From NCBI GenBank assembly GCA_035506075.1, contig DATJQB010000290.1, forward strand, positions 50-64,049: 64,000 nucleotides of DNA, in the 5' to 3' direction. The notes under the pieces are model-generated. The model was not told the DNA's origin, did no database searches, and saw only the letters and a program-made list of their open reading frames with translations. Shown here piece after piece: positions 1-26,812 of this stretch. The DNA comes from Bacteroidota bacterium. Its GTDB lineage: Bacteria > Bacteroidota > Ignavibacteria > UBA10030. A program made the translations under genes and the position numbers. How positions within the stretch are numbered: the stretch's first letter is position 1; every line of letters starts with the position of its first letter.

Positions 1-29
1 TCATAGATCTTGCCCTCATAGTTGTTTGA

Positions 30-2594
30 TTATCGTAATATCGAGAATTGACCGATCTTCTTGTCGCCCGTTGGTGATTCCACGATATAGAGGTAGAGCC
101 CGCTGGCACACTCGAGACCGTCTTTCGAGAACATGTCCCAGAATGTGCTTCCCTTGTTCGCATCGGACGAACTAAAGTAGATCACGTCGATAATCTGTCC
201 TGCCACGTCCGTGATGGTGATCTTGCATTGCGGGGGCAGATTGTAGAAGAGGAGCTTGTGATCGTACACGTTGGCCCTGTTGTCGTGCAACGCGGCCTTC
301 TTGTACGGGTTCGGCCGAACACTGACATTGCCAACCTGTCCAGCCGGAGCAAGAGCCGAGTACACAATCTGCACGGCACCAATGCCCTTCAGGCCGGTGG
401 ATGTTGCAGCGGCATCTGTTGTTGATGTCTTGCCGTAGTTGGCGTTCAGGGTCGCAAACGGGAAGGTGAGCTGCCACAGACCTGATGCACCGTTCCTGTT
501 CGTGGAGTGTGTCTCGATACGGTTCGTTGTTTCGCCGTCCGGACCTGTGTAGGTTCCCTCTTTGTATGCAGCCACGTAGTACCAATACGAGAACCCAAGC
601 ACCACATCCTTGTCCTCATATCTGTAGTTGTAACCGCTGGTCTGCGCCAACGGCAGCGTTGAAAGTTGAGCCTTCGGAATCACGGCAAGCAAATCCCATG
701 TGCCCCACGTGTCGGGCTGGTAGGAACCTTGTGATGCCGTGGCGTTGACCTGTCCAAACGCATCAAACTTCGGATTGACGGGCTTCTTCAGGTTGTCGGG
801 AACCGAACCAGGAGTCATGTTTTCCTGGTACCGGTCGGCATCCCGCATACCGTCTGTCAGGAAGTACTTCTTGACGTACTGGGACGACTTGTAGATCTTG
901 TATCCCGCAAAGTCGGGATCCGTCTCCGCCCGTTTGTCCCACTCAACTGCGACTGACTTCGTCAGAGTGTTGGTGACTTTCATATCAGGAAGCGGCGGGA
1001 GAACCGGGATCTTGTAATTCTGAGCATACGCCCAGCGTGCTGCACGGACCGCCTTTTGTATTCCTTCGAGACGGTATCCGGCAACCGTCGCCATGACGAT
1101 CGTCATCGACTCGCCGGGTGCAAGGCTGAACGGCCCGACACCTGCAAACATGTCGCCGTTGAAGTTTTCAGTATTGCTGGCGCCCTTTGTCCACCTGCCC
1201 CATCCGGTTGGATAGAGGGTGGTGGCATCTGCGTGGCCGTCTTCATACGACGGTGCATCGAAGATGTTGCTGGACTTGAAGTCGCCATCCGGTCGTGTTG
1301 CACCAGCGGTCTTCGGTACGAATGTCGTCACATCGCCCGCTGTGCCGCCCGAGAAGAAGTTTGTATTCGGGTTCAGGTTGAACTTGGTCGCATCCGTCTG
1401 CCGGGTCTTGCCGCCATCGACATACCAGACACCCGTGGCGGTCAGGAACTGTGCGTTCGGTGTGCCGGAGCCCCAGATCTGGGCCTGGCTTCCACCGGAA
1501 ACATACCATCCGCGCTGGACACCAACACCGACCGGATCGGTTCCGAAGATTGTCTTCTTCGTCGCATTGCCGACAACCGTCGTTGACTTGTCCGTCGGAA
1601 GTCCTCCCTGCTTCGCATCGATAATCACGAAGCCGGACCAGACATCGGTGTACCATTTGCGGGCACCGGTATTGAAGCCGATGTCGACGTTTCCGGGACT
1701 CGGATTCAACACGGACGCACTCGGGAGCATTGCGCTGAACGCCCAGGGATATCCATTGGGATCGGGATCATCAATCCACGCTGCCTGCGCAACGAGAGGC
1801 GTCAGGGTGACGTCGTTGTTGTTACGAACGCCGCCGCCATAGCTGCCAACGGACATGTAGCGCTCTTCGGAGAAGCTGAATGCAAGAGCCTTGATCGTGT
1901 TGTTCACTTTTTCGGCAACACCGTCCATGTTCATGTCCAGATTGCCGGTGTTCTTGAATTCAAGCTCGAGAATGACGAAGTCATTCAGGTTGTCCCAGTT
2001 CGGACCCGCAAAGCCGTGTGCGCGGATCTTCACGTCGATACCCACGTTTGTCGGCCACGCTGCTTCGTACACCACGTGCTGCCGGCGATTGCCATCGACC
2101 CAGGCGGGTTCAAGGGCGTAGTGCCGGGAGTTGTCCGTTGCTCCTGCCAGGGTCGGCATATACGTCAGCTGTGCATAGTTCGCACCGCCGCCGGAAGCAA
2201 AGTAACTGGGATTTGTCTTACCACCGATTGTTGACGGGTTGAAGTTTGGATCGGGATCATAGACGCCAGCCCATGCATTCTTGTACCAGTAGTTGGTATA
2301 GAACCATGCGGCAGGCCAGTGTGTGCCGGGGGTCGACCAGGCACGGTCGAAGTTCCCCAGGCGGATAAAGTTGCGGTAGCCTAACGTTGTGTACGTTCCG
2401 GCATCGCTGTAGCTCGGTGTGAAGCTCATCGGCAGGAATGATTCCCATGCATCGCCCGCCTGGATCACACCACCACCCGGATAGTTGACAGTCGAGGTGG
2501 CGGTAATGAGCTGGCCGAACAACGCGCCTGGAGCGACAGCGAACAATAGAGCAAGAATTGCGATAAGCAACCCTTTTTGTCTTGTCATGTTCAT
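30..2594 (-). CDS. Secreted T9SS cargo protein (paralog A) with C-terminal Por/T9SS sorting domain; function unknown
   Basis: 854-aa ORF. N-terminal signal peptide MNMTRQKGLLIAILALLFAVAPGALFGQ. C-terminus ...GLYLYIVESPTGDKKIGQFSILR matches the TIGR04183-type T9SS sorting-domain pattern. The central GPFSLAPGESMTIV...DFAGYKIYKS block is shared with ORF 13658..15601. Lies 47 bp downstream of a TBDR gene. Confidence 0.7.
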   Translation of the reverse strand: MNMTRQKGLLIAILALLFAVAPGALFGQLITATSTVNYPGGGVIQAGDAWESFLPMSFTPSYSDAGTYTTLGYRNFIRLGNFDRAWSTPGTHWPAAWFYTNYWYKNAWAGVYDPDPNFNPSTIGGKTNPSYFASGGGANYAQLTYMPTLAGATDNSRHYALEPAWVDGNRRQHVVYEAAWPTNVGIDVKIRAHGFAGPNWDNLNDFVILELEFKNTGNLDMNMDGVAEKVNNTIKALAFSFSEERYMSVGSYGGGVRNNNDVTLTPLVAQAAWIDDPDPNGYPWAFSAMLPSASVLNPSPGNVDIGFNTGARKWYTDVWSGFVIIDAKQGGLPTDKSTTVVGNATKKTIFGTDPVGVGVQRGWYVSGGSQAQIWGSGTPNAQFLTATGVWYVDGGKTRQTDATKFNLNPNTNFFSGGTAGDVTTFVPKTAGATRPDGDFKSSNIFDAPSYEDGHADATTLYPTGWGRWTKGASNTENFNGDMFAGVGPFSLAPGESMTIVMATVAGYRLEGIQKAVRAARWAYAQNYKIPVLPPLPDMKVTNTLTKSVAVEWDKRAETDPDFAGYKIYKSSQYVKKYFLTDGMRDADRYQENMTPGSVPDNLKKPVNPKFDAFGQVNATASQGSYQPDTWGTWDLLAVIPKAQLSTLPLAQTSGYNYRYEDKDVVLGFSYWYYVAAYKEGTYTGPDGETTNRIETHSTNRNGASGLWQLTFPFATLNANYGKTSTTDAAATSTGLKGIGAVQIVYSALAPAGQVGNVSVRPNPYKKAALHDNRANVYDHKLLFYNLPPQCKITITDVAGQIIDVIYFSSSDANKGSTFWDMFSKDGLECASGLYLYIVESPTGDKKIGQFSILR

Positions 2595-2641
2595 AGTGTT
2601 ACTCCATAATAATAGTATGGTTCACGTCCAGTGTCGTTCTC

Positions 2642-5600
2642 TTAGAAATCAAACCTGACACCAAAGTAGTACTCACGCGGGATATCATAGAACGGGCTTC
2701 CGTTCAATGCAACTGCGCGCTTGTAGGTACCAGTCGGATCAGGCGTGCCGTTGTTCAACGTCGTCATGCCGGCATTCGAGTACTCCCAAAGTGCCGCACC
2801 AGAGGCCGTGTTGTCGTAGCCAATGATGTTGACCCAGTTGAATACGTTCTTCATATCGAAGTAGACGGAGAAGCGGAGATTCGAAACCGTGAATCCCTTT
2901 TCAATCCGCATGTCAACCTGCTTGTTCCACGGAGCCTGACCAAACACACGGCCGGCGACGCGGGGATCTGCGGTCAACGACAACGGATAGTAGAAACCGC
3001 TCTGGAAGGTTCCCATCGAGGAGAGCATGATCTGGTACGGGAATTCGAAGAACAACACGTACGAAATCCTGTGCGCACGATCGTAGCCGCCCGTCAACAG
3101 GTTGTTTCCACCGACTACGTTGACTTCAACCTTGTTGTACGACCAGAAGTCATCGAACGGCAGCGTTTGGCCATACTTCAGGGTATCCGGACGAGAGAAC
3201 GTGGTCTGCTGCAGAGGATCGTTGCCCGTCCATCCGGTTGCCTTGATATAGCTGTAGGAGTAGTTCACACGTCCATACAGGGTGACGAAATCAAAATACG
3301 TCTGGCGCAGCGCCTGGAGTCCGAACTCAACACCGCGGGCATCAGCGTACTGCGCTGTGAGCCACATCGAGTTCGAACCGTTCGCGAGGTTCAGGGAGAC
3401 AGCCTGGTAGCTGTAGTTCTCAATGTCACGCATGTACGCAGAGAACGTCAACCCAAACTTCTTCGGAACAAATTCCCACTGAGCGCCGATTTCGTAGTTC
3501 GACGAAATCGTCGGCTGCTGCTGCAGACTTGCAAACTGCGGAAGGCCGCCGGCCGCGCCGAGCACTTCGTTGTAACTCGCATAGAGGCGTGAGTACGGAG
3601 GCGGAATGAAATTGCGCGAATAAGAGAAGTACATCGCCGCTTCATCGGAGATCGGGTGCGACACGCCGATACGCGGTGAGAAGAACCAGTACGGCTTCAC
3701 GTTGGTCGACTGGCGCAGCGGAATCAGATCGTTCCGAAGGCTGTCGTCCACCATCGCCGGCTGATTGACAAACAGGTTGTAGTAGCTCAACCAGTCAGCT
3801 GCTTTGGGATCCCAACGGTCGATACGGGCACCGAGGTTGATCACGAGACCCGCATATTCCATGCGATCCTGCAGATAGCCGCCGTACATCGTCGGCTTGA
3901 AGTCCCAGTCTTCAACAAGCAGCCTTCTCCTGACGTCCGTCGCATCCGCGCCCAGACCGGAGTTTCTCTGGATCCGGCTGATATCGTTGAACTGGAACGA
4001 CACACCGGCCTTCAGCTGGTTGTGGTAGTCAGCCTGGCTGGTAATGTCAAACTTGACCGTGTTGGTCAGGTTCTTCGTGTTTTCATAGATAAACTGCGGC
4101 CGCGTGATGCCGACCTGCGTATTGCCGGAGGTCATTGGCTGTGTAATAAAGCTCGGGCCGGCCTCGTCGCCAATACGGAAGAACTTGTAAAGATCGACGC
4201 CGGATCGGGAGACATATTTATCCACGTCGGCTGTTTTTTCGAGCGTAATAAAATTGCCATTTTCGTTGAGACCGCAGAAGCCATCGCCGTTATCGTCGCA
4301 ATAGCCATAGCGGTCCTGCTGGAATTTCGAGCTAAGCTGAATCTCGTAGAACGTGCTGGGTGAAAGCACATGGGTCATTTTCACGCTTCCCGTTGCGCCC
4401 ACACCGTCGTTCTTCGGCACGCCCTCGAGGAAATACCGCCACTGGTCGTTGTAGAAGGTGTTCTTCCATCCGAAGAGTCTGCCTCTGTCATTCAGGATTC
4501 CAAAGGCATTCAATTTGATGTTGCTGCCGAGGTTGTAGGTCGTCTTCAACGTGAAATCGGCCTCACGCTCGTGTTCGTTCGGCAGACGATCGTGCGAATC
4601 GAAGTACCGGCCGCTGAACATGAATCCCCAATCCTTTGTAATACCGCCGCTGATCATACCGTCGATATCCATCACCGGCTTGTCCTGATTGAGGTACTTC
4701 CCCTTGGTGTAGGTGTATTTCCCCGCCTTGATGCTGTCCGACGTAATGAGCGTCTGACGTGCGGCTGTCGGGGCTGTCGCCTGGAGGGTCTTCAGCGAGT
4801 CTGTGGCACGCTGTGTTGCGTTCCGCTCGTCGAAGTACACCTGATCGTTCCAGTAGAGATCCGGGCCGACGTATTTCAGGCCGTTCATCTGGCTTGACTT
4901 GACGGAGAAGCTGCCCGTCAGGTTGCCGCGTCCTTCACGGAGGGAGTAGTTGATAAGGCCGGCGGTCGCCGAAACGTTGTCTGCACCGACTGCGCCGGTA
5001 TTCACGGACATCTGCTCAATGGAGTTGAAATTGACGGAGTTCGTTGTGCTCAATTGGTAGTTTCTGTATCGCACAAGGCCGCCCGATGTCGAGAGGATGT
5101 TCTGGTTCGCCTGATCGGCACCAATCGCGTAGTACTGGTCGGTGACGTCGACGCCGTCGACGATCGTTTTGGTTTCCGTGATCTTACCGCCGCGGACGAA
5201 CCCTTTGTAGGCGCCCGGCGTTGTGTTCAGGACATCCAGAACGGACGTGATCGGCAGCTTGTTGTCCAGTTCATCTTTCGTAACGAGGGCTTTCGACGAA
5301 GTCTGCGACTTGTCGACCACTCTCATCTGGGCCTGAACGACCACCTCTTTCAATTCGATCGTTTCCTGCCGCAGGTCAAAATTCAAATCCGAAGTCTGAT
5401 CCGCACGCACCTGTACACCATTGACTTCCGTGCGCGCATACCCCACACTTGATGCCTGAATGGAGTACGTCCCCGGTGGAACGTTGAGGATGTAGTATCG
5501 CCCTTCAGCATCAGTCGCCGCTCCCATCGTTGTGCCCACGACAATCACGTTCGCGCCAACGACGGCTTCCTTCGTGGTGGCGTCCTTTACCGTCCCGGAA

Positions 5601-5686
5601 ATTTTTCCGTTCCCCGCATAGAGGAACGCTGGGATGGCAAGGATTATCAAGAGTATCAGGAGAACTTTGCACCAAGAGGATCTCAT
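2642..5686 (-). CDS. TonB-dependent outer-membrane receptor with N-terminal carboxypeptidase-regulatory-like (CarboxypepD_reg) domain
   Basis: 1014 aa. Signal peptide, then a GKISGTVKD...GANVIVVGTTMGAATDAEGRYYILNVPPGTYSIQASSVGY CarboxypepD_reg-like segment. Plug/barrel-length protein ending in terminal Phe (FGVRFDF), as expected for an outer-membrane beta-barrel. Confidence 0.85.
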   Translation of the reverse strand: MRSSWCKVLLILLIILAIPAFLYAGNGKISGTVKDATTKEAVVGANVIVVGTTMGAATDAEGRYYILNVPPGTYSIQASSVGYARTEVNGVQVRADQTSDLNFDLRQETIELKEVVVQAQMRVVDKSQTSSKALVTKDELDNKLPITSVLDVLNTTPGAYKGFVRGGKITETKTIVDGVDVTDQYYAIGADQANQNILSTSGGLVRYRNYQLSTTNSVNFNSIEQMSVNTGAVGADNVSATAGLINYSLREGRGNLTGSFSVKSSQMNGLKYVGPDLYWNDQVYFDERNATQRATDSLKTLQATAPTAARQTLITSDSIKAGKYTYTKGKYLNQDKPVMDIDGMISGGITKDWGFMFSGRYFDSHDRLPNEHEREADFTLKTTYNLGSNIKLNAFGILNDRGRLFGWKNTFYNDQWRYFLEGVPKNDGVGATGSVKMTHVLSPSTFYEIQLSSKFQQDRYGYCDDNGDGFCGLNENGNFITLEKTADVDKYVSRSGVDLYKFFRIGDEAGPSFITQPMTSGNTQVGITRPQFIYENTKNLTNTVKFDITSQADYHNQLKAGVSFQFNDISRIQRNSGLGADATDVRRRLLVEDWDFKPTMYGGYLQDRMEYAGLVINLGARIDRWDPKAADWLSYYNLFVNQPAMVDDSLRNDLIPLRQSTNVKPYWFFSPRIGVSHPISDEAAMYFSYSRNFIPPPYSRLYASYNEVLGAAGGLPQFASLQQQPTISSNYEIGAQWEFVPKKFGLTFSAYMRDIENYSYQAVSLNLANGSNSMWLTAQYADARGVEFGLQALRQTYFDFVTLYGRVNYSYSYIKATGWTGNDPLQQTTFSRPDTLKYGQTLPFDDFWSYNKVEVNVVGGNNLLTGGYDRAHRISYVLFFEFPYQIMLSSMGTFQSGFYYPLSLTADPRVAGRVFGQAPWNKQVDMRIEKGFTVSNLRFSVYFDMKNVFNWVNIIGYDNTASGAALWEYSNAGMTTLNNGTPDPTGTYKRAVALNGSPFYDIPREYYFGVRFDF

Positions 5687-6498
5687 GATGTTGCTCCTTG
5701 GATGTAGAAGTATATCAGTGAATTAATAACCGTTGTAGAATATAGAGAGAGGATCAAGAAAGACTGTAACGCACAATCGGTATTGCTGTGGATGATGCCG
5801 CTGATGCAGCGTAGCAACTATTCGGTCCCAGCACCTCCCTTCTTTGAATGCGTTGGGTTGGATTGGGGGTGAGATTCAGTTTCAGATTCGCGCACAACGG
5901 AAACGTTACCACAGCTTCTCACACCCTCACCATGCGGCAACACCACGGTGTGAATGGTACGATGGAATTCTTCAGGAAGAGAAGCTTTGAGTTCGCTGCC
6001 ACAACCCCGAAGGGCCCGCGTAGAGCGAGAGTTTCATTAATAAAACTCGGTTTCAGCGGGGGAAGTATAAAACATTTTGCCGGGAATGTCAAGACACGAC
6101 ACTCGACACTTCAAGATAGTACGGAAGGGATTCCTCCAAGGCAATGCGAATCCCCGAGATGTCTGCTTCCCGCGCCGGCACCGCAGCCAATGCGTGACTC
6201 TGCGACCGGTTTTGTGTAGATTCCTGCATCCGGACCGCGTACGCCAACTTCGTTTCAGGATGAAAACGGTGAACCGGCTTCTGCCTTCCGCACCAATTGC
6301 CCGCATTCAATGTCCCCGGGTGGTCGCGTTCACGTCCTCGATGAGTGTCCGTTTCGTCCCACGCACGTGCGTCCGTTGAAACGGATCACCGCACTCTATA
6401 ATAAAGAGGTCAACAACTCAAACCCATCCCCGCCCTGCTCCCGCACCGTGCTCATCCAGCTCCCCATACAACAAAAGGACTGCGGTCCGTCTCATTTC

Positions 6499-8919: not shown

Positions 8920-9134
8920 ATCATTCGGGCGGTTCCGCTCCCGCCGTTTCGGACTCCACGCCGGGGCTCAACAGCCCGTCCGCCACATTCTTCAACATTA
9001 TGAGCCCTGCCGGTAGAGCAACAAATCCCTCCCCTCTCCCGTAAGACTGGAAGGATCAAATCCTCTTGCCGGGTTCCTTCTTCACGACTGCAGCCTCCGG
9101 GCTCCCCGGCTTCAATTCTTGCGGAGATGTTACC

Positions 9135-10847
9135 ATGAAAGCCCACAAACTCTTCGTCCCTTTCGTCGCGTTGCTCTTCACAACTCCTCTGTTCGCGCAG
9201 GGAGATCTCCTGAGCGAGATTCACCGCGTCGGAGTGTATGATGTCAAGAGCAACGGATTCGTTCTGGATTCAGATCAGGGTGTCACCATCCACGCGGTTG
9301 CAGCAAGCGATCGTTACCATGGGGTCGGGACTTCCGCCTGGATTCTCGACAAGTCGACGCGCGCTGTCGTCTGGAAACTCTGGAATGCGAAAGAACATCG
9401 TCGCAGCAAAGGTCTTTCGGAGTATGACGATGTTGTCCAGCTCCCCAAAGGGGACTACGAAGTGTACTACGCCGCATATCCCGAGCCATCAGACAACGTT
9501 GAAAACTTCAGCGACTTTATGGATCTTCTCTCGAGCAAGATCTTCGATGGAAGGCGACGCGACCGCGACTATGATGAATTCTCCATCACTGTGCGCGGCC
9601 ACGGGAAACCCGTCGCGTCCGATGGAGTTGAACAATGGCAGGAGGGTTTGAAAAAGGATGCGCTCGTGTCGATGTCGGCCCTCTGGGACAATGAGTACGT
9701 GCAGCGCGGATTTGTACTTGAGAAACCCGCCGAGCTGACCGTCTATGCTCTCGGAGAAATCCTCGACGACAATCTCGACGATTACGGATGGATCATGAAC
9801 GCCAAAACCGGATCACGGGTATGGCAGATGGACGAGCGCACGATGAAGAACGCCGGCGGTGCGCGCAAGAACCGGATGGTGCGTGAGACTCTTCAACTCC
9901 CCGCCGGACAGTATGTCGCATACTTTGTGACGGACGGATCGCACTCGTACCGGTCGTGGAATGCCGCTCCGCCGTACGACCCGGCATTCTGGGGAATGAC
10001 AATCTGGGTCAAGGATGAAAGCCAGAAGAAATACGCGAAGACGTTTGATTTCAAGCCATCCGCTCCGAAGAACGTCCTTGTCGACCTCACACGATTGGGC
10101 GATCACGAAGTGCGGTCGAAGGCCTTCACGCTCAAGAATGGAATGGATGTTCACATCTACGCCATCGGCGAGGGGCGCGACCACGAGATGTCCGATTACG
10201 GCTGGATCGTCGATGCCACCACAAGGAAGAAAGTATGGAAGATGGAGTACGATCAAACCAGTCACGCCGGCGGCGACAAGAAGAACCGGATCGTTGACAA
10301 GGTTCTTCATCTCGACAAGGGAAGCTACGTCGTGCATTTCGTCACGGACGATTCCCATTCCTATCGTGACTGGAACTCGTCCCCCCCGTTCGATCCCGAG
10401 CACTGGGGGATCACCGTGAGCGCTGCAAGTGATCAGTTCAATCCTTCCGATGTGACTTCATACGAGGAGCGGGACAATCCTTCTGTGCTCGCGAGCATTC
10501 TTCGCGTGGGAGACGATGAGCGGCAACACAAGAAATTCTCTCTTGCGAAGACAAGCACTGTGCACATCTATTCAGTTGGCGAAGGGCGCGACGGTGAGAT
10601 GTACGATTACGCCTGGATCGAGGACGCGAACTCCGGAAGAACGGTCTGGAAGATGAAATACAGGATGACGGAACGGGCCGGCGGTGCATCAAAGAACCGG
10701 CTTTTCGACGGCACCATTTCTCTTCCCGCGGGCAGTTATATCGTCTACTACGAAACAGACGACTCTCATTCGTATGACGATTGGAACGATACACCGCCTG
10801 ATGATCCGGAAGCGTGGGGTGTTACGGTGTCACTCGAAAAGCAGTAG
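9135..10847 (+). CDS. Secreted protein composed of four tandem ~135-aa repeats of an unrecognised domain
   Basis: ORF-track frame 9066..10847. Start moved to MKAHKLFVPFVALLFTTPLFAQ (signal peptide). Four repeats each contain IYA/SVGEGRDxEMxDYGWIxDAxTxxxVWKMxY...AGGxxKNRxV...GSYVVxFVTDDSHSYxDWNxxPPxDPExWGxTV. The repeat is also visible at DNA level (gattacggatggatc / gattacggctggatc / gattacgcctggatc at ~9781, ~10195, ~10603). Confidence 0.7.
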   Translation: MKAHKLFVPFVALLFTTPLFAQGDLLSEIHRVGVYDVKSNGFVLDSDQGVTIHAVAASDRYHGVGTSAWILDKSTRAVVWKLWNAKEHRRSKGLSEYDDVVQLPKGDYEVYYAAYPEPSDNVENFSDFMDLLSSKIFDGRRRDRDYDEFSITVRGHGKPVASDGVEQWQEGLKKDALVSMSALWDNEYVQRGFVLEKPAELTVYALGEILDDNLDDYGWIMNAKTGSRVWQMDERTMKNAGGARKNRMVRETLQLPAGQYVAYFVTDGSHSYRSWNAAPPYDPAFWGMTIWVKDESQKKYAKTFDFKPSAPKNVLVDLTRLGDHEVRSKAFTLKNGMDVHIYAIGEGRDHEMSDYGWIVDATTRKKVWKMEYDQTSHAGGDKKNRIVDKVLHLDKGSYVVHFVTDDSHSYRDWNSSPPFDPEHWGITVSAASDQFNPSDVTSYEERDNPSVLASILRVGDDERQHKKFSLAKTSTVHIYSVGEGRDGEMYDYAWIEDANSGRTVWKMKYRMTERAGGASKNRLFDGTISLPAGSYIVYYETDDSHSYDDWNDTPPDDPEAWGVTVSLEKQ

Positions 10848-10895
10848 GATCGGCGGGGAGCGCAGGGAACCCCGGCGCTTGCATGGGAACCACGG

Positions 10896-10928
10896 AAGGC
10901 GGACGAAACGATGTCCGCCTTTTTTATT
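10896..10928. terminator. Bidirectional rho-independent terminator between convergent genes
   Basis: Stem aaggcggac / gtccgcctt with loop gaaacgat, followed by TTTTTATT on the + strand. An A-rich run precedes it, so it is also usable on the - strand. It sits in the 76-bp gap between the repeat-protein gene and the convergent dipeptidase gene. Confidence 0.55.
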
Positions 10929-12624
10929 TGCACACAGCTCTGAAGACCCTCATGAAGTTTTCCCCCAGAATCTTCCTGACGTCCTGTTTCGAATAACCCC
11001 GCTGGAGCAGGGCTTCGGTGATCGCCGGAAATTTCGAGACGTCTTCAAGACCCACGGGGGTTGTCTCGATACCGTCGAAATCGGATCCGAGCGCCACGTA
11101 ATCGATACCGACAAGATTCTTGATGTAATCGATGTGCTGAATGACATTTTCCAGGCGCGCCGTGCCGGAAGAAACGAGAAACGTCGGGTAGAACACGACA
11201 CCGATGACTCCGCCCCGCTGCGCTATCGTCCGGATCTGTGCGTCGGTCAGGTTCCTGTAGTGATTGCGCACGGCCGCAGCTCCTGAATGGGAGGCGATAA
11301 TGGGGTTCTTCGAGGTCGCGAATATATCTGTCACGGTCTGGGGGCCGACGTGCGACACATCGATGATCATGCCGAGCGAATCCATGGTGCGGATGACACT
11401 CTTCCCGAACTCATTCAATCCCCCGGCCACACCGGATGAAGCATCCTTCGCCGAGACAGCCCACGAGGTGCTGTTGTTCCAGGTGATCGTCATGACGCGC
11501 ACACCGGCACGATAGAACGCGCGCAGGTTGTCAAGGTTATCCTCGATGCTGTGCCCTCCCTCCACAACCACGATGCCCGCAATCTTGTTCTGGCGCGTCA
11601 GTGCGTCCACCGTGTCGGCAGACGTTGTCAGCTTCACATCGTTTGCGTTCCGCGCGACCTGGGCTTTCAGCGTATCGAGAAATTTCATGCTCGTTGCATA
11701 ATACGCCGGCGCGTATTTGGTGGGATCGATCCAGATGGATAAGATCTGCGCGTCCACGCCCCCATCCCTGAATCGCGGAATATCGGTCTGCGGATCTCCG
11801 TTCCTCACAACCACGTGGCGATCGGCAATCTGGTAGGTGAAGTTCGTCCCCGAGATCACTTCCATCACATCGTTATGGAGGTCGATCACGAACGCCCGGT
11901 CGTGCACAGTCTCAAGAAGAAAGTCCGCCTGAGCAGAATCGACGAACGCCACGGTTGCTGAATCCGGCTCGTAAATCAACGACGACGCAACGATGCGGCA
12001 CGAATCGATGCCGGAGGGCGAAGCAAGGTTCCACGAAATGCTTCTTCCCATGACGGACAGGGTGGTCAGTCCCGGCATTGCTCCCCCGTCGAGCTGCACC
12101 ATTTTCCGTGTCAATCGCTCTCCCCCCATCTCAATCGAGTAGAACAGCACGCCCGCGCTTCCCTTCGAAGTCCAATCGATTGTGTAACTTCCCTGCCGGA
12201 GGTCGAATTCTTTCGCGTCAAGGAGCTGGCCAAGGATGTTGTAGACCGTGATGCGCGCTCTGCCCGATCGGGAAATTGTAAACGGAATCTTCGTGGATGG
12301 GTTGAACGGGTTGGGGTAATTTTGTTCCAGGCTGAACGAGCGCGGAACATCTCCCGTCTCTGCAATGCCAACGACGGGAATGTTCACCTGCCACTGACCG
12401 AGCGTGTTTGTGGTCGTCGATGCGAGGAGAACTCCAGAGCGATCGTACACCTGGATGGCAGCCGAAGCAACCGGTGTTCCGCGGTGCTTGTCACGCGCCG
12501 TTCCGCGGAGGGTCTTTCCGCCTGCATACAGTCCGGCAACAAGAAAGAACGCCGCCAGGGCCGTGAGGCAAAGACGATGTGTGGTTCGAAGAGAAAGAGC
12601 GGGAAGCCCGATGAGAGTTGTCAT
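10924..12624 (-). CDS. Membrane (renal-type) dipeptidase, peptidase family M19, with N-terminal signal peptide, CarboxypepD_reg-like segment and an internal T9SS-sorting-domain-like segment
   Basis: ORF 10924..12669; start probably M16 (MTTLIGLPALSL...LVAGLYAGG signal). The C-terminal ~380 aa carry M19 hallmarks (VIDLHNDV..., HSIEDNLDNLRAFYRAGVRVMTITWN, DVSHVGPQT, ASHSGAAAV, GSDFDGIE). Residues ~110-190 read SLEQNYPNPFNPSTKIPFTIS...ITVYNILGQLLD...GSYTIDW...GVLFYSIEMGGERLTRKMVQL, which is the canonical T9SS sorting-domain pattern, here placed N-terminally. Confidence 0.8.
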   Translation of the reverse strand: MTTLIGLPALSLRTTHRLCLTALAAFFLVAGLYAGGKTLRGTARDKHRGTPVASAAIQVYDRSGVLLASTTTNTLGQWQVNIPVVGIAETGDVPRSFSLEQNYPNPFNPSTKIPFTISRSGRARITVYNILGQLLDAKEFDLRQGSYTIDWTSKGSAGVLFYSIEMGGERLTRKMVQLDGGAMPGLTTLSVMGRSISWNLASPSGIDSCRIVASSLIYEPDSATVAFVDSAQADFLLETVHDRAFVIDLHNDVMEVISGTNFTYQIADRHVVVRNGDPQTDIPRFRDGGVDAQILSIWIDPTKYAPAYYATSMKFLDTLKAQVARNANDVKLTTSADTVDALTRQNKIAGIVVVEGGHSIEDNLDNLRAFYRAGVRVMTITWNNSTSWAVSAKDASSGVAGGLNEFGKSVIRTMDSLGMIIDVSHVGPQTVTDIFATSKNPIIASHSGAAAVRNHYRNLTDAQIRTIAQRGGVIGVVFYPTFLVSSGTARLENVIQHIDYIKNLVGIDYVALGSDFDGIETTPVGLEDVSKFPAITEALLQRGYSKQDVRKILGENFMRVFRAVCK

Positions 12625-12686
12625 CCCACCGGGCTTCTGCGGTGTGTGCAAAACACTCTGACTGATCAATATACCTCAAAGACCGC

Positions 12687-13649
12687 TTAGAAACCGATTC
12701 CTATCGAGAGCTTTTGCACCGAAGGAAGGATCTTGAATTTTTCGAAGGAATAATCAAACCGGACATTTTGTCCAAGGAACTTGCTCGCGTTGACACCGAG
12801 CCCTGCTGCAAACGACTCATCGTCGTAGTTCATCTTCACACCGCCGCGGACTGCTAGGAGATCGTACAGGAGCAGCTCGCCGCCAACGGAGTAATGCTCG
12901 ACATTGTCGTTGGGATGGATCAGATCGGCAATGACGCGCAGCGTGTACCCGTCGGCCACGACGGGCTCCATCGAGAACGAGGCCCTGAAGGTGACGGGGA
13001 GCGGGACGCGCTGAAATCCCTTCGTCACATTGCCCTCGGAGTAATCCTGATAGTTCCCGTCGAACGGTGACATGTCGGCGCCGAAATTCTGTAGCGTCAT
13101 CGCCAGGTGTGAGCCGGCGAATCCCAGCGCATAGTTCGTGCCGATATCAAATGCAAGGGCGGAGGTTGAGTGATCGAAATACGACTCCCGGATGATCTTC
13201 GCCTGGGCACCCACGACCAGTTTCTCCGTGATGTGCCGTGCGAACGACAGTCCGAGCACCATGTTCTGGATTGAATACGTCTGACCCGTACCGTTTTCCT
13301 GCTCAATCGTCGTAATCTCCTCCTGGGAGCTGAATCCCGTCGCCTGCACACCGATCACACCAATGTCCCCCCAGCGAAACGCTGCGGAAAGCGAGACCAT
13401 GTCGATGGCGGCGAACCAGGGGACGTACGTGAAGGAGACGTCGGCTTTCTGAACTCCTTCCAGCCCGGCAACATTGGTATAAACCGCGGCGGCATTATCG
13501 ACGACAGACGCTGCAGCGTTCCCAAGCGCCGAGGCGCGGGGATCGAAACTGATCTTCAACAACTGTGCGCCGCTGGTGCCGACCTGCCCGAACTGCTGCG
13601 CGGCGACTGGAACGGTAACGAGAAGAAGAAAGAGAATTGTCTTTTTCAT
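12687..13649 (-). CDS. PorV/PorQ-family-like (FadL-like) outer-membrane beta-barrel protein
   Basis: ORF 12687..13766 trimmed to MKKTILFLLLVTVPVAAQQ (signal peptide); an ATG sits 8 bp after the stop of the upstream cargo gene. N-terminal ...LLKISFDPRASALGNAAASVVDNAAAVYTNVAGL resembles the PorV/PorQ/FadL signature. Alternating beta-strand pattern, C-terminal ...LSIGIGF. The family call comes from motif resemblance only. Confidence 0.5.
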   Translation of the reverse strand: MKKTILFLLLVTVPVAAQQFGQVGTSGAQLLKISFDPRASALGNAAASVVDNAAAVYTNVAGLEGVQKADVSFTYVPWFAAIDMVSLSAAFRWGDIGVIGVQATGFSSQEEITTIEQENGTGQTYSIQNMVLGLSFARHITEKLVVGAQAKIIRESYFDHSTSALAFDIGTNYALGFAGSHLAMTLQNFGADMSPFDGNYQDYSEGNVTKGFQRVPLPVTFRASFSMEPVVADGYTLRVIADLIHPNDNVEHYSVGGELLLYDLLAVRGGVKMNYDDESFAAGLGVNASKFLGQNVRFDYSFEKFKILPSVQKLSIGIGF

Positions 13650-13657
13650 GTGGCACC

Positions 13658-15601
13658 TCAGCGCATGATGACAAATTTGCCCGTGTGGGTCCCGACAGAG
13701 GACTCCACAACGTAGATGTACAGCCCACTGACGGCTTCCTGGTTGTTCCTGGTCGTCAGATCCCACTCGGCAACTCCGGTGAAATCACCGGTGATCTTCA
13801 CATCGCGGCTCTGGTAGACAACATCGCCGCTGTGGATCGTCTTGACGAGGTCGCCGGCAAGTGTGAAGATCGAGATCTTCGCATCCGGCGGGAGGTTGAT
13901 GAAGCGGATCCTGTTCACCCATGGATTTGTATCAACCGGATTGGGGTTGTTGTACCTGCTCGACCCCAGGAACGGATTCGGAACGACCTTGATTCCCGAT
14001 GTTGTCGAGGCGGCAGGAGCGTTCGGCATGAAGACCTGCGTCGACTGGCGGCCGCGGCCAATCTGGTTTTCAAGCCTTCCGATGCCAAGCGTCGAATCGC
14101 CCGAGTCAAATGCGGTGACCGCGTACGTATAGATGAGTCCGTTCGGCGTGTTCTTGTCCTGGAACTCGTAGAGCGTGTCACTTCCCTGCACAACTGTTGA
14201 CGGGGGCCAGTTCTTCAGGAAGGGGCGGCCGTACCAAAGCGTGTCCTTCTTCTTGTCGATGGCGTTGTTCTTCACGTAGATTGCCAGTGTATCCCAGATC
14301 GCATTGCCTCCCGCGTCCTGCCGCGACGTGCGATACACGCCGTAGCCGGCAAAATCCTGCGCCAGCGTCAGTGGATCGCGGCTCGACTCGGCGTTTTTTC
14401 TCCACCGAATTGAAAGCGTCGGCTGTCCGCCGGAAGTAACCGGAACAACGTTGAAGACCGGCACATCCGGTGCCGCCGGGGCGCGCTGGTAGTTGCCGTC
14501 AAACATCGATTGTGCCACCAGGGAGTTCTTGATAATCCCCTGAAGCCCCGGTCCGATGACCCAGGCGACGACAATATGAATTGAGTCACCGGCATTGAGC
14601 GTGTATGGTCCGACACCGAAAATGATCCTGTAATCACGGATCGTTGTCATGTTCTCCGTGATGGTTCCCTTTGCAACGAACTCATATTGTGCCTGCGACG
14701 TAAGCGGTTCGAAATTCCGATACGACGGGGTTGCCATAGTTGGCTTTCCCGTGTACTTGCCGGTGAAATGTACGCTGTCACAATACAGCATCCGGAAGCC
14801 GATGTATCCCGGCGAACGCAGAACGCCCGTCACAGGATCAGGGTTGCCCGTATCGTCGCCCACAACGCTCGGGCTGTCAGAATCGTAGATGTAGGCAAGC
14901 TTGTTCGTGGAATCGTAACCCGCCAGGTCATCGGTATCCCACAGCGTGGATGGTGTGCTTGTTCCCAGGAACCCGGACACGTCTGCATCCTGGCGGAACG
15001 CGACATAGATGCCGGTCAGTTTTTTCTCCGCATCGTCAATCACGCCGTTCTTGTTCCGGTCGTACGGAACATACTTGATCCAGTAATCGCCGATGATGAA
15101 ATCTTCGTTGTACGATTGATCCCACACGTACGTCCGCTCGGTTACTTCCACGCCGAGGTTGACGTGCACACCCGACGGACTTGCAGGGTCGATATCGGTG
15201 TAGCGCGTGTACGTATCTTCTGCCGAGAGCGATCCCTCGGCGGCGTGTTTGACGTGGATTGAATCGAGCGGGCGGAAATGATTGTTCTCTCCCGACGACA
15301 TGTAGCCGAGTGAATCCGCGATGCCGCCGATCCAGATCGACTGCAGCCAGCCGTACAGGTTACCGCTGCCTCCCGGCCATTCGAAATTGGGTTCTTCATA
15401 GTTGCGGTCGCCGTAGAACCCGTAGTTTGTAATCTGTGTCCAGAGCCTTCCCATCTTGTGGCTGAATCCCTTGGCGGGAATATCCGTGACCGAAGAGGTT
15501 TTCATGGGAAGCTTCTCGCGGACTTTCGGCACATCCTGCGCCCACGCCACGGTGAGAAGGAACATGCTTGCAAGGAAGATGCGTATGAGAGTTGTTTTCA
15601 T
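13658..15601 (-). CDS. Secreted T9SS cargo protein (paralog B) with C-terminal T9SS sorting domain
   Basis: 647 aa. Signal peptide MKTTLIRIFLASMFLLTVAWAQD. C-terminus ...AVSGLYIYVVESSVGTHTGKFVIMR follows the T9SS sorting-domain pattern. The internal GPYTLNAGDSIHIVVAWV...DFAGYGVYRTS block is homologous to ORF 30..2594. Starts 7 bp after the TBDR stop. Confidence 0.7.
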   Translation of the reverse strand: MKTTLIRIFLASMFLLTVAWAQDVPKVREKLPMKTSSVTDIPAKGFSHKMGRLWTQITNYGFYGDRNYEEPNFEWPGGSGNLYGWLQSIWIGGIADSLGYMSSGENNHFRPLDSIHVKHAAEGSLSAEDTYTRYTDIDPASPSGVHVNLGVEVTERTYVWDQSYNEDFIIGDYWIKYVPYDRNKNGVIDDAEKKLTGIYVAFRQDADVSGFLGTSTPSTLWDTDDLAGYDSTNKLAYIYDSDSPSVVGDDTGNPDPVTGVLRSPGYIGFRMLYCDSVHFTGKYTGKPTMATPSYRNFEPLTSQAQYEFVAKGTITENMTTIRDYRIIFGVGPYTLNAGDSIHIVVAWVIGPGLQGIIKNSLVAQSMFDGNYQRAPAAPDVPVFNVVPVTSGGQPTLSIRWRKNAESSRDPLTLAQDFAGYGVYRTSRQDAGGNAIWDTLAIYVKNNAIDKKKDTLWYGRPFLKNWPPSTVVQGSDTLYEFQDKNTPNGLIYTYAVTAFDSGDSTLGIGRLENQIGRGRQSTQVFMPNAPAASTTSGIKVVPNPFLGSSRYNNPNPVDTNPWVNRIRFINLPPDAKISIFTLAGDLVKTIHSGDVVYQSRDVKITGDFTGVAEWDLTTRNNQEAVSGLYIYVVESSVGTHTGKFVIMR

Positions 15602-15610
15602 GGCGTCACC

Positions 15611-18364
15611 TTAAAATTGGAGCTGCAACCCGAGCCGGTACACGCGGGGAGGCGTGTAGGCCTGGGGATCGTTGTAGGGACCGGTCGGGTTACCCGTGGC
15701 TTCGTATTCAACAAGACCTTCACGTCCATCGGAGATGTAGGAAATGTTCCTGGTGTTCAGCAGGTTCTTGACCTCTGCGAGCACCGAGAATTCAATCTCA
15801 CCAACCGTAAAGGATTTCCGCGCACGCATATCCACGTTGCTTGCCCACGGAAGCCGGGCGTCGTTGCGAAGGACAAACAGCGGAAACGCATCGCGGGTGT
15901 TCGATGAATACGGATAGCCGGAGTGGGCGACGACCACAAAATCGACCTCGGCATCGCCGATGAGGTCGTGAATCTTTCCCGTCGACGTCAGGAGCAGGTT
16001 GCCGTTGATTCTCCAGCGCACATCCCAGTCGAGCGGATCGAGGCGACGCGGAACAATTTCACCGTTCGATCTGAACACAGACGACGAACGGCCGTTTGCG
16101 AACGCGTAGCTCACGTTGATCATCCCGCCGATTCCACGGGTTGCCATCGTCTCGAGCGTCATTTCCAATCCGCGTACGTTCGCATAATCCATGTTCGTGT
16201 ATGCCTGGTACGAATCGGGGGAACCCGTGATTACGAAGTCGGTGGCCCCGATGAGGTTGGTGATGTCTTTGAAATAGAGCGTTGTGTTCATCCTGAGAAA
16301 ATCGGAGAACATGTGATCCCAGCCGAGCTCGTACGATACGGTCTTCTCCGGCAGCAATCTCGGGTTGCCGAGATCTACGTTTGTCGTGTAGCGGAAATTC
16401 AGAGCGCTGTTTTCATAGAGGAAGCGAAGATCCGGACGCTGGAAGAAGTGTCCATAATAGAAATGAATCTTGTCCCTCTCGGTAATTGGATGTGAAATGC
16501 CGATGCGGGGGCTGATCTGCCACCGGGCGGGAACCTTGTCGGACGTCGTCAGACCCAGGGCATCCTTGTGGCTCGGCAGTGTGGTAAGATCGGCGGGATA
16601 GAGCACGTCCCCCGTCAAACCGTTTGGATTATAGTAATCGAAGCGGATGCCGGCATTCACAATAAAACCGTCGCGGACTTCGATCTTGTCCTGGAGATAT
16701 GCGGCAAAGTCCACCAGGTCCTGGTTCCACATATCAAAGCGCTGATTGGAAGGAGACTCGAATGTCACCTTCTCAACGCCCCCCTTGATGTAGTCTGTTT
16801 CGACCCCGGTCTTGAAGAGGTTAGAAGAGTTCAGCTGGTTTGAATAGTCGACGCGCAGGTTGGTTGTGCGTGAGATCTGATTCAGATACCATCCTTCATC
16901 GCCGGTGTAGTACCAGTAACCGTCGGTCAAGAGGTGGCTGTAGTAGCCCCCAATGCCGCCATTGAGTTGCCAGTGAAGTTCGTCCGTCGTGCTGCCGTCG
17001 AGATTCCTGTCGTCGACATCGCGGACGATCTCACGGAAGTTCGTCCAGAACTGTGACAATTTGATGTCGATGAACGATTGATTGTTGATCGTCTGGTTGA
17101 TCGAGAGACCGATGTTGTAGCTTTTGTTGATCGGGAGTGAAATGTGATTCTGCATTCCCGCCTGATAGATGTTCTGCACACTCTTGTACCACAGGCCGTC
17201 GACTGCATATCGTGCCGAGTCGGGATTCTTCGCGTTGTGGTAGTTTTGTGGATTGGTGACGAAGATGAACTGTTGCAGCGTCTTGACGCCGTTCGAGGTA
17301 ACGAGCTGCTGGAAGAGATCCGACTGGTATCCTTCGCTCAGCGGTCCATACTTCGCGGAGGAGTGATAGTAGGAATTCGTCTGGTCCCAGGAATACAAGC
17401 CGCTGAGTGTGACGCGGGTATTCGGAGTCACCGCCCGCATCTTGAGCTGGTAGGATTCCCTGTGAAAATCCTCATGTGGAAGAAAATCGCGGTTCTGCAG
17501 CGCAACGTCCGTTGAACCGTTCAGATAGAAGTTGATTCCCCCCATGGTAACGGAAGGAGCGCTGATATATGCTTCGTAGTCTTTCCAGTCCGGCTGACCG
17601 GTGCCGTACGCGAAGGGCGTCCACTGCATCTTCGCCCACGGAAAATCCGAGGTGCGGACGCGGAGCTTAGCGCCGAACCTGTTCTGATCCCGCGTGATTG
17701 TGTTGACGATGCCCGATTGCGCATTGCCGTACTCCGCCTCAAACCCGCCCGTCGTTACCTGGATCTCGGAGACGCTGAACTCGGGAAGATTGGCTGAGAA
17801 GCCGGCCGTTGTTGTTCCGCTGTAGCTGTTGATGGCGCTCTTGATCGCCATGCCGTCAACCAGGAACAGCGACTCGTTGAAGCGGCCGCCGCGGAAATGA
17901 CTTCCGTTCACGCCGGCCTGCATGAAGACCACCTCTCTGAAATCGTCGACCGGCAGAGCGTTGATCGCTTCGGCTTCAACGATGTGCTTCGTGGATGTCA
18001 GGTCTGCCTGAATCGGAGGCCTTGTCGCCACAACGACAACCTCGCCGAGCTGGACATCAGCCGCCTGCAGCGGGAAATCGATTGTCGTGGTCATGTCGAG
18101 CATGACCCTGATGTTCGAGATGGTCTTTGGTGCAAAGCCAATCATCGACGCGCGCAGGGTATAAGTCCCGACGGGCACGTTGATAATGAAGTAGTTGCCG
18201 TCGACATCGGAAGCCGTTCCATAGGTGGTACCAACAATCTGGATGTTCACCATCGGGAGCGGCTGGTGAGTGGCGGCATCAAAGACGCGACCAGCGATTT
18301 TTCCGGTCGTCCCCGCCAATGCGAGCTGGGACGCGAGAAGAAAGAAGCAAAGGAGCCTTTTCAT
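15611..18364 (-). CDS. TonB-dependent outer-membrane receptor (CarboxypepD_reg N-domain)
   Basis: 917 aa. Signal MKRLLCFFLLASQLALAGTTG, then KIAGRVFDAATHQPLPMVNIQIVGTTYGTASDVDGNYFIINVPVGTYTLRASMIGF. Plug/barrel length and C-terminal ...RLGLQLQF. Confidence 0.85.
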   Translation of the reverse strand: MKRLLCFFLLASQLALAGTTGKIAGRVFDAATHQPLPMVNIQIVGTTYGTASDVDGNYFIINVPVGTYTLRASMIGFAPKTISNIRVMLDMTTTIDFPLQAADVQLGEVVVVATRPPIQADLTSTKHIVEAEAINALPVDDFREVVFMQAGVNGSHFRGGRFNESLFLVDGMAIKSAINSYSGTTTAGFSANLPEFSVSEIQVTTGGFEAEYGNAQSGIVNTITRDQNRFGAKLRVRTSDFPWAKMQWTPFAYGTGQPDWKDYEAYISAPSVTMGGINFYLNGSTDVALQNRDFLPHEDFHRESYQLKMRAVTPNTRVTLSGLYSWDQTNSYYHSSAKYGPLSEGYQSDLFQQLVTSNGVKTLQQFIFVTNPQNYHNAKNPDSARYAVDGLWYKSVQNIYQAGMQNHISLPINKSYNIGLSINQTINNQSFIDIKLSQFWTNFREIVRDVDDRNLDGSTTDELHWQLNGGIGGYYSHLLTDGYWYYTGDEGWYLNQISRTTNLRVDYSNQLNSSNLFKTGVETDYIKGGVEKVTFESPSNQRFDMWNQDLVDFAAYLQDKIEVRDGFIVNAGIRFDYYNPNGLTGDVLYPADLTTLPSHKDALGLTTSDKVPARWQISPRIGISHPITERDKIHFYYGHFFQRPDLRFLYENSALNFRYTTNVDLGNPRLLPEKTVSYELGWDHMFSDFLRMNTTLYFKDITNLIGATDFVITGSPDSYQAYTNMDYANVRGLEMTLETMATRGIGGMINVSYAFANGRSSSVFRSNGEIVPRRLDPLDWDVRWRINGNLLLTSTGKIHDLIGDAEVDFVVVAHSGYPYSSNTRDAFPLFVLRNDARLPWASNVDMRARKSFTVGEIEFSVLAEVKNLLNTRNISYISDGREGLVEYEATGNPTGPYNDPQAYTPPRVYRLGLQLQF

Positions 18365-18690
18365 GGTTTCCTCTTAGACATTGGATCAAAGTGACGCGAG
18401 GAGAAAAAGGACACGGAAGCAAACTATGCCTGGTACCGCAAGGTCCGCTGACTCGGCGGACGGTCGATTGTTTACTACGTGAGGACTGGGATTACACGTG
18501 AAGCGTCGCGAGCGTGCTGGATGCGAATCAGATTGCGAGGCGGCCCTGACGGTGCGGGCGGCACTCCGGTGCACGACTGCAGTGTGAAAGTAGCCATCTC
18601 TTCGAATGAAGTCAAGCCTTAGTTGACGAAGGAATGACCAGCGAATGCGATGGGATGGATGTGAAAGGAATTCCTGTTTCTGTGGTCGTG

Positions 18691-18731
18691 AGGACAAAAG
18701 GAAGGGTCCAACCGGAACAAGCGTTGGACCC
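18691..18731 (-). terminator. Rho-independent terminator downstream of ctp (minus strand)
   Basis: Hairpin gggtccaac-(cggaacaagc)-gttggaccc at 18704..18731. The minus-strand 3' tail reads UUCCUUUUGUCC (plus-strand aggacaaaaggaa at 18691..18703). Confidence 0.5.
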
Positions 18732-18761
18732 TGAAGTCGAAGACTGATTGCTGGGATTGTG

Positions 18762-26774: not shown

Positions 26775-26812
26775 ATGGTCTTCTCCTTTGATTGGGATCC
26801 AGTCGTGTTCCA

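Follow-up and report, generated by a model that had tools for sequence, protein, structure and literature searches.

Three adjacent genes in an Ignavibacteria genome, encoding a TonB-dependent receptor (TBDR), a protein with a type IX secretion system (T9SS)-type C-terminal domain (CTD) and a small outer-membrane barrel, raise the question of whether these parts may work together as a single uptake unit at the cell surface. The genes, which we refer to as module B, lie on the minus strand of a 64,000-nucleotide (nt) stretch of DNA, hereafter the window, taken from contig DATJQB010000290.1 (positions 50 to 64,049; assembly GCA_035506075.1) of a Bacteroidota bacterium in the lineage UBA10030. 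The initial annotation of the window suggested a SusCD analogue built from T9SS parts. This is the best-supported reading, because the paralogy of the cargo proteins, the identity of the barrel, the conservation of the arrangement and a context resembling that of polysaccharide utilization loci (PULs) all held; the physical complex and the uptake function are presented conditionally below (see Discussion). With a probability of roughly 60%, we favor a TonB-dependent uptake unit that would follow the logic of SusCD and RagAB in a different construction, with the cargo protein, termed X, held by its uncleaved CTD in a PorQ-like barrel.

Gene order and its conservation

All three open reading frames (ORFs) of module B were recovered where the initial annotation had placed them:

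15611..18364, minus strand: TBDR of module B, 917 amino acids (aa)
13658..15601, minus strand: protein X ("cargo B"), 647 aa
12687..13649, minus strand: PorV/PorQ-family outer-membrane barrel, 320 aa from its ATG (MKKTILF...)

Read from the sequence, 9 nt separate the receptor stop from the ATG of X, and 8 nt the X stop from the ATG of the barrel; of the gaps of 7 and 8 bp first annotated, the second is correct and the first contains a trivial error. The mechanical ORF of the barrel reaches back to a GTG at 13766, which would overlap X.

To place this arrangement in a wider context, relatives of X were collected from one genome per GTDB species (143 relatives), and the best 80 were used to define loci. 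Together with four non-duplicate loci from contig look-ups, these form the synteny set, in which ORFs were re-called and matched with hidden Markov models (HMMs) built from the window proteins. The metagenome-assembled genomes behind the best 80 are labeled Ignavibacteria/Bacteroidota, KSB1, Calditrichota, Marinimicrobia/Neomarinimicrobiota/Fidelibacterota and Zixibacteria, the Ignavibacteria/Bacteroidota relatives, from the lineage of the window itself, being 82-85% identical to X. Where the flank is long enough, X is immediately preceded by a homologous receptor gene in 66 of 70 loci and immediately followed by the barrel gene in 65 of 67, with intergenic gaps of -38 to +93 nt across loci. 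Judging by coordinates, at least some exceptions arise from the ORF caller choosing upstream starts that overlap the neighboring gene. The order receptor-X-barrel is retained in distant X homologues at 21-24% identity, and the triad is present at three of four sampled representatives of the wider superfamily (P0086, P0102 and P0097; the fourth is described below). Pairwise identities among 59 complete triads and the window's own are correlated between the three genes at 0.88-0.96, and by this measure the genes diverge in parallel. Judged from gene order and divergence together, the triad is a conserved, co-inherited unit in many phyla of the Fibrobacteres-Chlorobi-Bacteroidetes (FCB) group.

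One locus ties the triad directly to TonB energization through its gene order: on a contig of candidate division WOR-3 (L171, 1-12130), the genes run exbB-exbD-exbD-tonB-receptor-X-barrel-CTD protein in the same orientation and with minimal gaps. The receptor here is a distant homologue of the window TBDR, and the CTD protein following the barrel has 935 aa.

Some contigs carry more than one module. Two triads are found on each of the contigs of L039 and L096, and the window contig holds one full triad plus a paralogous module A (see below). In L096 (1-9628), the tandem order X (partial), barrel, receptor, X, barrel suggests that entire modules were duplicated locally. L001 contains, on the opposite strand (1-4612, minus), a divergent second module with the apparent order 1057-aa receptor, 312-aa protein, 708-aa protein.

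Full-text literature searches on PorV/PorQ and PorV-like proteins, TonB-dependent uptake, SusD and several of the lineages concerned yielded no description of a receptor/CTD-protein/PorV-like triad, nor is one mentioned in the genome papers on Caldithrix and Melioribacter. What appears new is the combination; the receptor, the T9SS CTD, the PorV/PorQ barrel and the logic of receptor-partner and cargo-carrier pairs are each known.

The small barrel

The barrel had been annotated as PorV/PorQ-like, and this assignment is borne out by an HMM search. The protein passes the NCBIfam model for the PorV/PorQ family (NF033709) with 154.2 bits against a cutoff of 90, with aa 25-320 aligned to HMM positions 1-326. 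It fails both equivalog models, scoring 42.6 bits against a cutoff of 250 for PorV (NF033710; N-terminal half only) and 95.4 bits against 220 for PorQ (NF033711; aligned full-length). Going by these scores, it is a distinct PorV/PorQ subfamily that is more PorQ-like in length, score and coverage. NCBI lists an identical protein under the name "PorV/PorQ family protein". A PorP/SprF-type carrier was also considered, and no match was found at E≤0.01.

In the AlphaFold2 (AF2) model of the barrel (pLDDT 86.8), the fold is closest to solved PorV: the top Foldseek matches are two entries of F. johnsoniae PorV, 8gl6_F (E 6e-13, TM-score normalized to the query, TMq, 0.73) and 6h3i_F (6.5e-11, 0.70). 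FadL, TbuX and TodX rank below PorV, with a TMq of ~0.6 for FadL and TbuX. Their presence among the structural matches, and the shared FadL fold, would suit a generic FadL/OmpP1-type channel, or a housekeeping PorV or PorQ, that happens to lie beside X. This explanation is at odds with the score above the NF033709 cutoff and with PorV as the best structural match; moreover, no Pfam family is matched at E≤0.01, so there is no Toluene_X/FadL (PF03349) match either. It is equally at odds with the adjacency to X in 65 of 67 loci across phyla, and a single housekeeping gene cannot be reconciled with paralogous triads on one contig (two X genes within 18 kb in the window; two triads each in L039 and L096). 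We consider a generic barrel very improbable, and its adjacency by chance is effectively excluded.

The initial annotation further described the barrel as a PorV-like shuttle. Its family membership stands, and the protein looks closer to a permanent anchor of PorQ type, or to a cognate carrier, than to a roving shuttle. By analogy with known CTD-barrel pairs, it would bind the CTD of X.

The barrel has a signal peptide with the predicted site VAA↓QQ. Cleavage by signal peptidase I (SPI) at this site (near 13649) and at AWA↓QD in X (near 15601) would expose an N-terminal Gln in both proteins. An N-terminal Gln fits the SPI "Q-rule" of Bacteroidetes, a rule that is not valid across the whole FCB group (PMC5837995).

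Protein X and its CTD

The AF2 model of X (mean pLDDT 79) is almost entirely β and comprises a signal peptide, a β-supersandwich of ~320 residues, a fibronectin type 3 (FN3)/Ig-like domain and a C-terminal β-sandwich:

14492..15469, minus strand: N-terminal β-supersandwich domain, galactose-mutarotase-like, aa ~45-370; proposed ligand-binding module
14027..14464, minus strand: FN3/Ig-like middle domain, a spacer, aa ~380-525; conserved least of the three
13661..13999, minus strand: C-terminal T9SS-type domain (the CTD), aa ~535-647; proposed uncleaved anchor that would bind the barrel

The signal peptide is of the SPI type (AWA↓QD), with neither a lipobox nor a Cys. No Pfam family matches X, and a PDB search returned no solved homologue by sequence; the middle domain gives a weak Fn3 match there (3mpc, E 0.0098). 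A relationship to SusD/RagB was rejected on the grounds of the missing Pfam match, the almost all-β model and the absent lipobox.

The CTD scores 18.9 bits with TIGR04183 (cutoff 23; aa 553-645) and has no PF18962 match at E≤0.01, and two truncated X homologues carry precomputed PF18962 matches. The traits of a type A CTD are present: a β-sandwich fold, a first strand of PNPF type and a conserved Lys near the C-terminus. This residue, Lys642, is invariant and corresponds to a near-C-terminal Lys that is almost invariant among type A CTDs (PMC10994853). The best NCBIfam match of X is the C-terminus of PorZ; identity with PorZ itself was rejected, as NF052228 gives 21.6 bits against a cutoff of 260 and aligns with the CTD region only.

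Two features set this CTD apart. First, it exceeds the ordinary CTDs encoded in the same loci by 10-25 residues, with an added loop (aa ~544-560) that follows the VVPNPF strand and forms a low-confidence segment of the AF2 model. At the fourth superfamily representative, P0112 (locus L172), X has a canonical, Pfam-recognized CTD, and neither a barrel nor a receptor adjoins it. Although a single observation, this is a hint that the presence of a barrel is linked to the extended CTD and not to the N-terminal domain. L172 (2-6952) encodes two adjacent X-type supersandwich proteins with the canonical short CTD (QNYPNPFNPVTTIKF...), and neither a barrel nor a receptor is encoded directly beside them.

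Second, the CTD is the best-conserved domain of X, with a mean pairwise identity of 56.5% in the same set of 59 complete triads plus the window's own, compared with 46.8% for the supersandwich and 32.4% for the FN3-like domain. In ordinary type A CTDs, the translocon-contacting surface is poorly conserved (PMC10994853).

The conservation of the CTD bears on a simpler account, in which the barrel serves export only. It would act as a cargo-specific T9SS shuttle out of the SprA translocon, the CTD would be cleaved, X would be released or linked to lipopolysaccharide and would work without the barrel, and the receptor would merely be co-regulated. In the literature, cognate shuttles are recognized by the adjacency of cargo and carrier genes (PMC12618676, PMC10994853); the barrel does belong to the PorV family, and our case for CTD retention is itself drawn by inference. 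Nevertheless, a discarded signal would not be expected to be the most conserved domain of its protein, and the fixed receptor-X-barrel order with short gaps across phyla, together with the parallel divergence, favors a three-part functional unit. Type B CTD proteins, for example SprB with SprF in F. johnsoniae, are encoded next to PorP/SprF carriers that also anchor them (PMC12618676, PMC10994853), so that even the published model of cognate carriers leans toward anchoring. We therefore regard an export-only role as unlikely and prefer the reading in which X stays anchored to its barrel.

X belongs to a very large superfamily. A profile search of 1.84 billion cluster representatives (clusters at 50% identity) recovered 7,751 at E≤1e-3 and 795 at E≤1e-30. 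The resulting ~7,750 clusters have no Pfam or NCBIfam model of their own and no solved relative; source databases leave the homologues unnamed or call them "hypothetical", "fibronectin type 3 domain-containing" or "T9SS type A sorting domain-containing".

The receptor

The TBDR shows the domain order signal peptide, CarboxypepD_reg-like N-terminal extension (aa 23-111), TonB-box-like motif, plug and barrel. The extension matches PF13715 (1.6e-19); the motif GEVVVVATR lies at aa ~107-115, between this domain and the plug (aa 121-218; PF07715, 22.4 bits, marginally under the cutoff of 23.9), after which a 22-strand-type barrel follows (PF00593, 6.7e-21, 76 bits against a cutoff of 27). With a plug, a 22-strand barrel and a TonB box all recognizable in its sequence, the protein is identified as a TonB-dependent receptor. 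It fails the SusC/RagA model TIGR04056 (64.9 bits against 368.25), the match being confined to the N-terminal ~120 aa.

Two further receptors are encoded elsewhere in the window. At 25341-29680 (minus strand), a 955-aa TBDR is followed by a 490-aa protein whose gene overlaps it by 1 nt; the smaller protein has the lipobox LSLAAC and no Pfam match. These two are probably a divergent SusC/SusD-like pair. At 6310-10847 (plus strand), a third receptor (869 aa) precedes a 593-aa secreted protein without a CTD or family assignment, which contains three internal repeats of the form ...YGWI.DA..G..VW.M...AGG..KNR...TDDSHSY..WN..PP.DP..WG...

A paralogous module in the window

Module A lies at the start of the window:

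2642..5686, minus strand: receptor of module A, 1014 aa, paralogous to that of module B
30..2594, minus strand: module A X paralogue, 854 aa

The initial annotation took the two cargo proteins for paralogs on the strength of shared sequence blocks. A BLASTP comparison agrees (E 7e-23, 27% identity over the C-terminal ~320 aa, with both of the conserved internal blocks inside), and the N-terminal NEDFxI block is shared as well: BLASTP by itself does not reach significance there (E 0.08), but family profiles match it. An HMM of the X family of module B finds the module A cargo at E 9e-45, including HMM positions 143-199 aligned to residues 190-250, and the module A HMM finds X at 4.8e-41. By these reciprocal profile matches, the module A cargo is a true paralogue of X. 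The receptors of the two modules, with BLASTP values of 7e-29 and 2e-21, are each other's closest relatives in the window: the module A receptor scores 396 bits with the HMM of the module B receptor family, where the other two window TBDRs score 150 and 115 bits. Between modules, the barrels share 25% identity, the X proteins 27% and the receptors 25-31%.

The barrel gene of module A would fall past the end of the contig and window. An exact look-up of the module A cargo protein gave no record. In a metagenome scan of X relatives of module A, a receptor precedes X in 35 of 36 cases, and a barrel lies directly 3' in 51 of 66 relatives (strict window). Six of the other 15 were inspected, and these have a barrel ORF that was called with an over-long start.

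Genomic context and operon limits

In nearly every locus, the barrel gene is followed by one for a further T9SS-tailed protein. Pfam domains of these proteins were tallied over 48 loci, where one protein may match several domains:

FG-GAP: 26 of 48 loci
sortilin/BNR: 18 of 48 loci
M19: 10 of 48 loci
M28: 6 of 48 loci

Distant triads adjoin genes for GH2, aldose epimerase and TIG proteins (L006) or for GH43, GH10-CTD and TIG proteins (L008); in L001, the neighbor encodes an M28-CTD protein. Distant X members adjoin glycoside hydrolases (GH), and closer members adjoin peptidases. With GH2/GH43/GH10 or M19/M28 neighbors, the context of the triad in other organisms is PUL-like.

In the window, the neighbors of module B are peptidases, M19 downstream and S41 upstream. 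The flanking features are as follows:

10924..12669, minus strand: M19 membrane dipeptidase, probable fourth operon gene, 581 aa from a TTG
10894..10923: GC-rich hairpin with a 12-bp stem, likely operon end (terminator scan)
18365..18761, minus strand: 397-nt non-coding stretch 5' of the receptor gene, presumed promoter or regulatory region

The distance from the barrel to the M19 gene is 17-62 nt, depending on the start codon chosen (TTG, or ATG at 12624). The hairpin lies directly 3' of the M19 stop, between convergent genes, and the terminator scan found no comparable hairpin between barrel and M19. Because the M19 gene closely trails the barrel and the only strong hairpin comes after it, the transcription unit probably has four genes, M19 included. 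Hence, of the three-gene operon first proposed, the tight triad is retained and its end probably shifts by one gene. The non-coding stretch 5' of the receptor has no long ORF on the minus strand and no sigma-70 consensus, in a scan whose tool does not cover Bacteroidota-type promoters and which was uninformative (2 sites where chance would give 4).

T9SS signals usually sit at the C-terminus. The M19 dipeptidase (PF01244, 8.1e-102), which also has a CarboxypepD_reg-like domain, carries a T9SS type A sorting domain (TIGR04183, 41.5 bits) internally, at aa 118-191 (nt 12097-12318), N-terminal to the catalytic domain. The internal position is kept in all six orthologues tested (L003, L012, L015, L018, L022 and L025). 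The domain could serve to anchor the protein in a PorV-like barrel, or it could be left over from an ancient gene fusion. Because an M19 gene lies in the operon and an S41 peptidase gene upstream, peptides are the likeliest cargo of the module B copy, a proposal we consider plausible.

Discussion

How might such a unit operate? In the reading we favor, the CTD of X would escape cleavage and remain attached to extracellular loops of the PorQ-like barrel encoded with it, much as the CTD of PorZ sits on PorQ and that of PorU on PorV. Both PorZ-PorQ and PorU-PorV keep their CTDs, and it has been hypothesized in a review that cognate PorV-like barrels shield CTDs from cleavage (PMC10202324). SprA has been described as specific to the FCB group, and it is absent from Chlorobiota (PMC12611786). 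The barrel would thus be a dedicated carrier of X and its permanent membrane anchor. The barrel-X pair would sit beside the receptor, and the supersandwich would capture substrate at the surface and pass it to the TonB-energized receptor. The further genes of the operon would set the substrate class, with peptidases here and glycan loci for distant copies.

Several considerations weigh against this reading. A complex of X, barrel and receptor, and the hand-over of ligand within it, are steps that we infer; adjacency, parallel divergence and CTD conservation suggest the link between X and barrel, and conservation together with analogy to the known pairs suggests that the CTD may be retained. 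Because the CTD lies under the TIGR04183 cutoff and has no Pfam match, export of X by T9SS is likewise a prediction from its sequence features. Within the orthologous group of the window triad, a propeller (FG-GAP or BNR) is a commoner product of the fourth gene than a peptidase. The organism probably has a lipoprotein-type (SusD-like) partner too, in the receptor pair described above, so the triad would coexist with such partners and not replace them, and an argument from "need" is unavailable. Finally, the supersandwich has many invariant Asp residues, which makes an enzymatic or metal-dependent role possible. X may then act enzymatically at the surface, as a hydrolase or lyase that turns a polymer into oligomers for the receptor, with the barrel still its anchor or carrier. 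The supersandwich is non-catalytic-looking, and we hold an enzymatic X to be quite unlikely; capture and hand-over of substrate by an anchored X is our preferred role for it.

The triad invites comparison with several established systems. As in SusC/SusD and RagA/RagB, a receptor with a CarboxypepD_reg-like extension is encoded immediately before a surface accessory protein, and many diverged paralogues occur in loci with secreted glycoside hydrolases or peptidases. However, SusD and RagB are α-helical tetratricopeptide-repeat lipoproteins, whereas X is all-β, lacks a lipobox and ends in a T9SS-type CTD; the receptor fails the SusC/RagA model, and a PorV/PorQ-family barrel is the obligatory third gene. 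Unlike the PorQ-PorZ and PorV-PorU pairs of the P. gingivalis T9SS attachment complex, the triad is not core secretion machinery, is multi-copy and lies beside a TBDR; X lacks the β-propellers of PorZ, and its barrel fails both the PorQ and the PorV equivalogs. With type B CTD proteins and their PorP/SprF carriers, the triad shares the adjacency of a cargo gene to the gene of its own outer-membrane carrier barrel. It differs in having a PorV/PorQ and not a PorP/SprF barrel, a type-A-like CTD with an insertion, and a nutrient receptor in place of gliding adhesins.

A structural precedent for the proposed receptor-barrel-X assembly is BamG-BamH of the Bacteroidota β-barrel assembly machinery (BAM) complex, although family and function differ. 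BamG, a 14-strand barrel of FadL fold, packs on BamA and holds a surface subunit via its extracellular loops (PMC12578637). It is a weaker structural match to the window barrel than PorV is (Foldseek, 9hiv_F, TMq 0.53 compared with 0.73). In the TbpA/TbpB-type pairs of Proteobacteria, too, a receptor is co-encoded with a surface ligand-capture protein; unlike X, these partners are lipoproteins delivered via Slam or other routes, with no T9SS and no dedicated anchor barrel.

These comparisons lead us to a wider proposal, offered tentatively and, in all its parts together, at a little short of even odds. The triad may represent a third, hitherto unrecognized architecture for receptor-plus-surface-partner uptake of nutrients, in which a T9SS CTD would plug permanently into a PorQ-like barrel docked on the transporter. 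Its thousands of copies may be the PUL-equivalents of Ignavibacteria, Calditrichota, Marinimicrobia, KSB1, Zixibacteria and WOR-3, and the extended loop of the CTD may act as a specificity code that pairs each cargo with its own barrel.

TonB-dependent uptake with a surface partner is a defining nutritional strategy of Bacteroidota, and searches based on SusD miss such loci in other FCB phyla. X itself is a big protein family without a domain model or solved structure. If the proposed mechanism is true, PorV/PorQ-family barrels and type-A-like CTDs would gain a role in stably anchoring transporter subunits, and the triads would supply natural cognate CTD-barrel pairs for decoding the carrier specificity of T9SS. 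The receptor-X-barrel signature would also serve as a simple genomic marker of uptake loci in abundant, largely uncultured lineages of sediment, soil and ocean.

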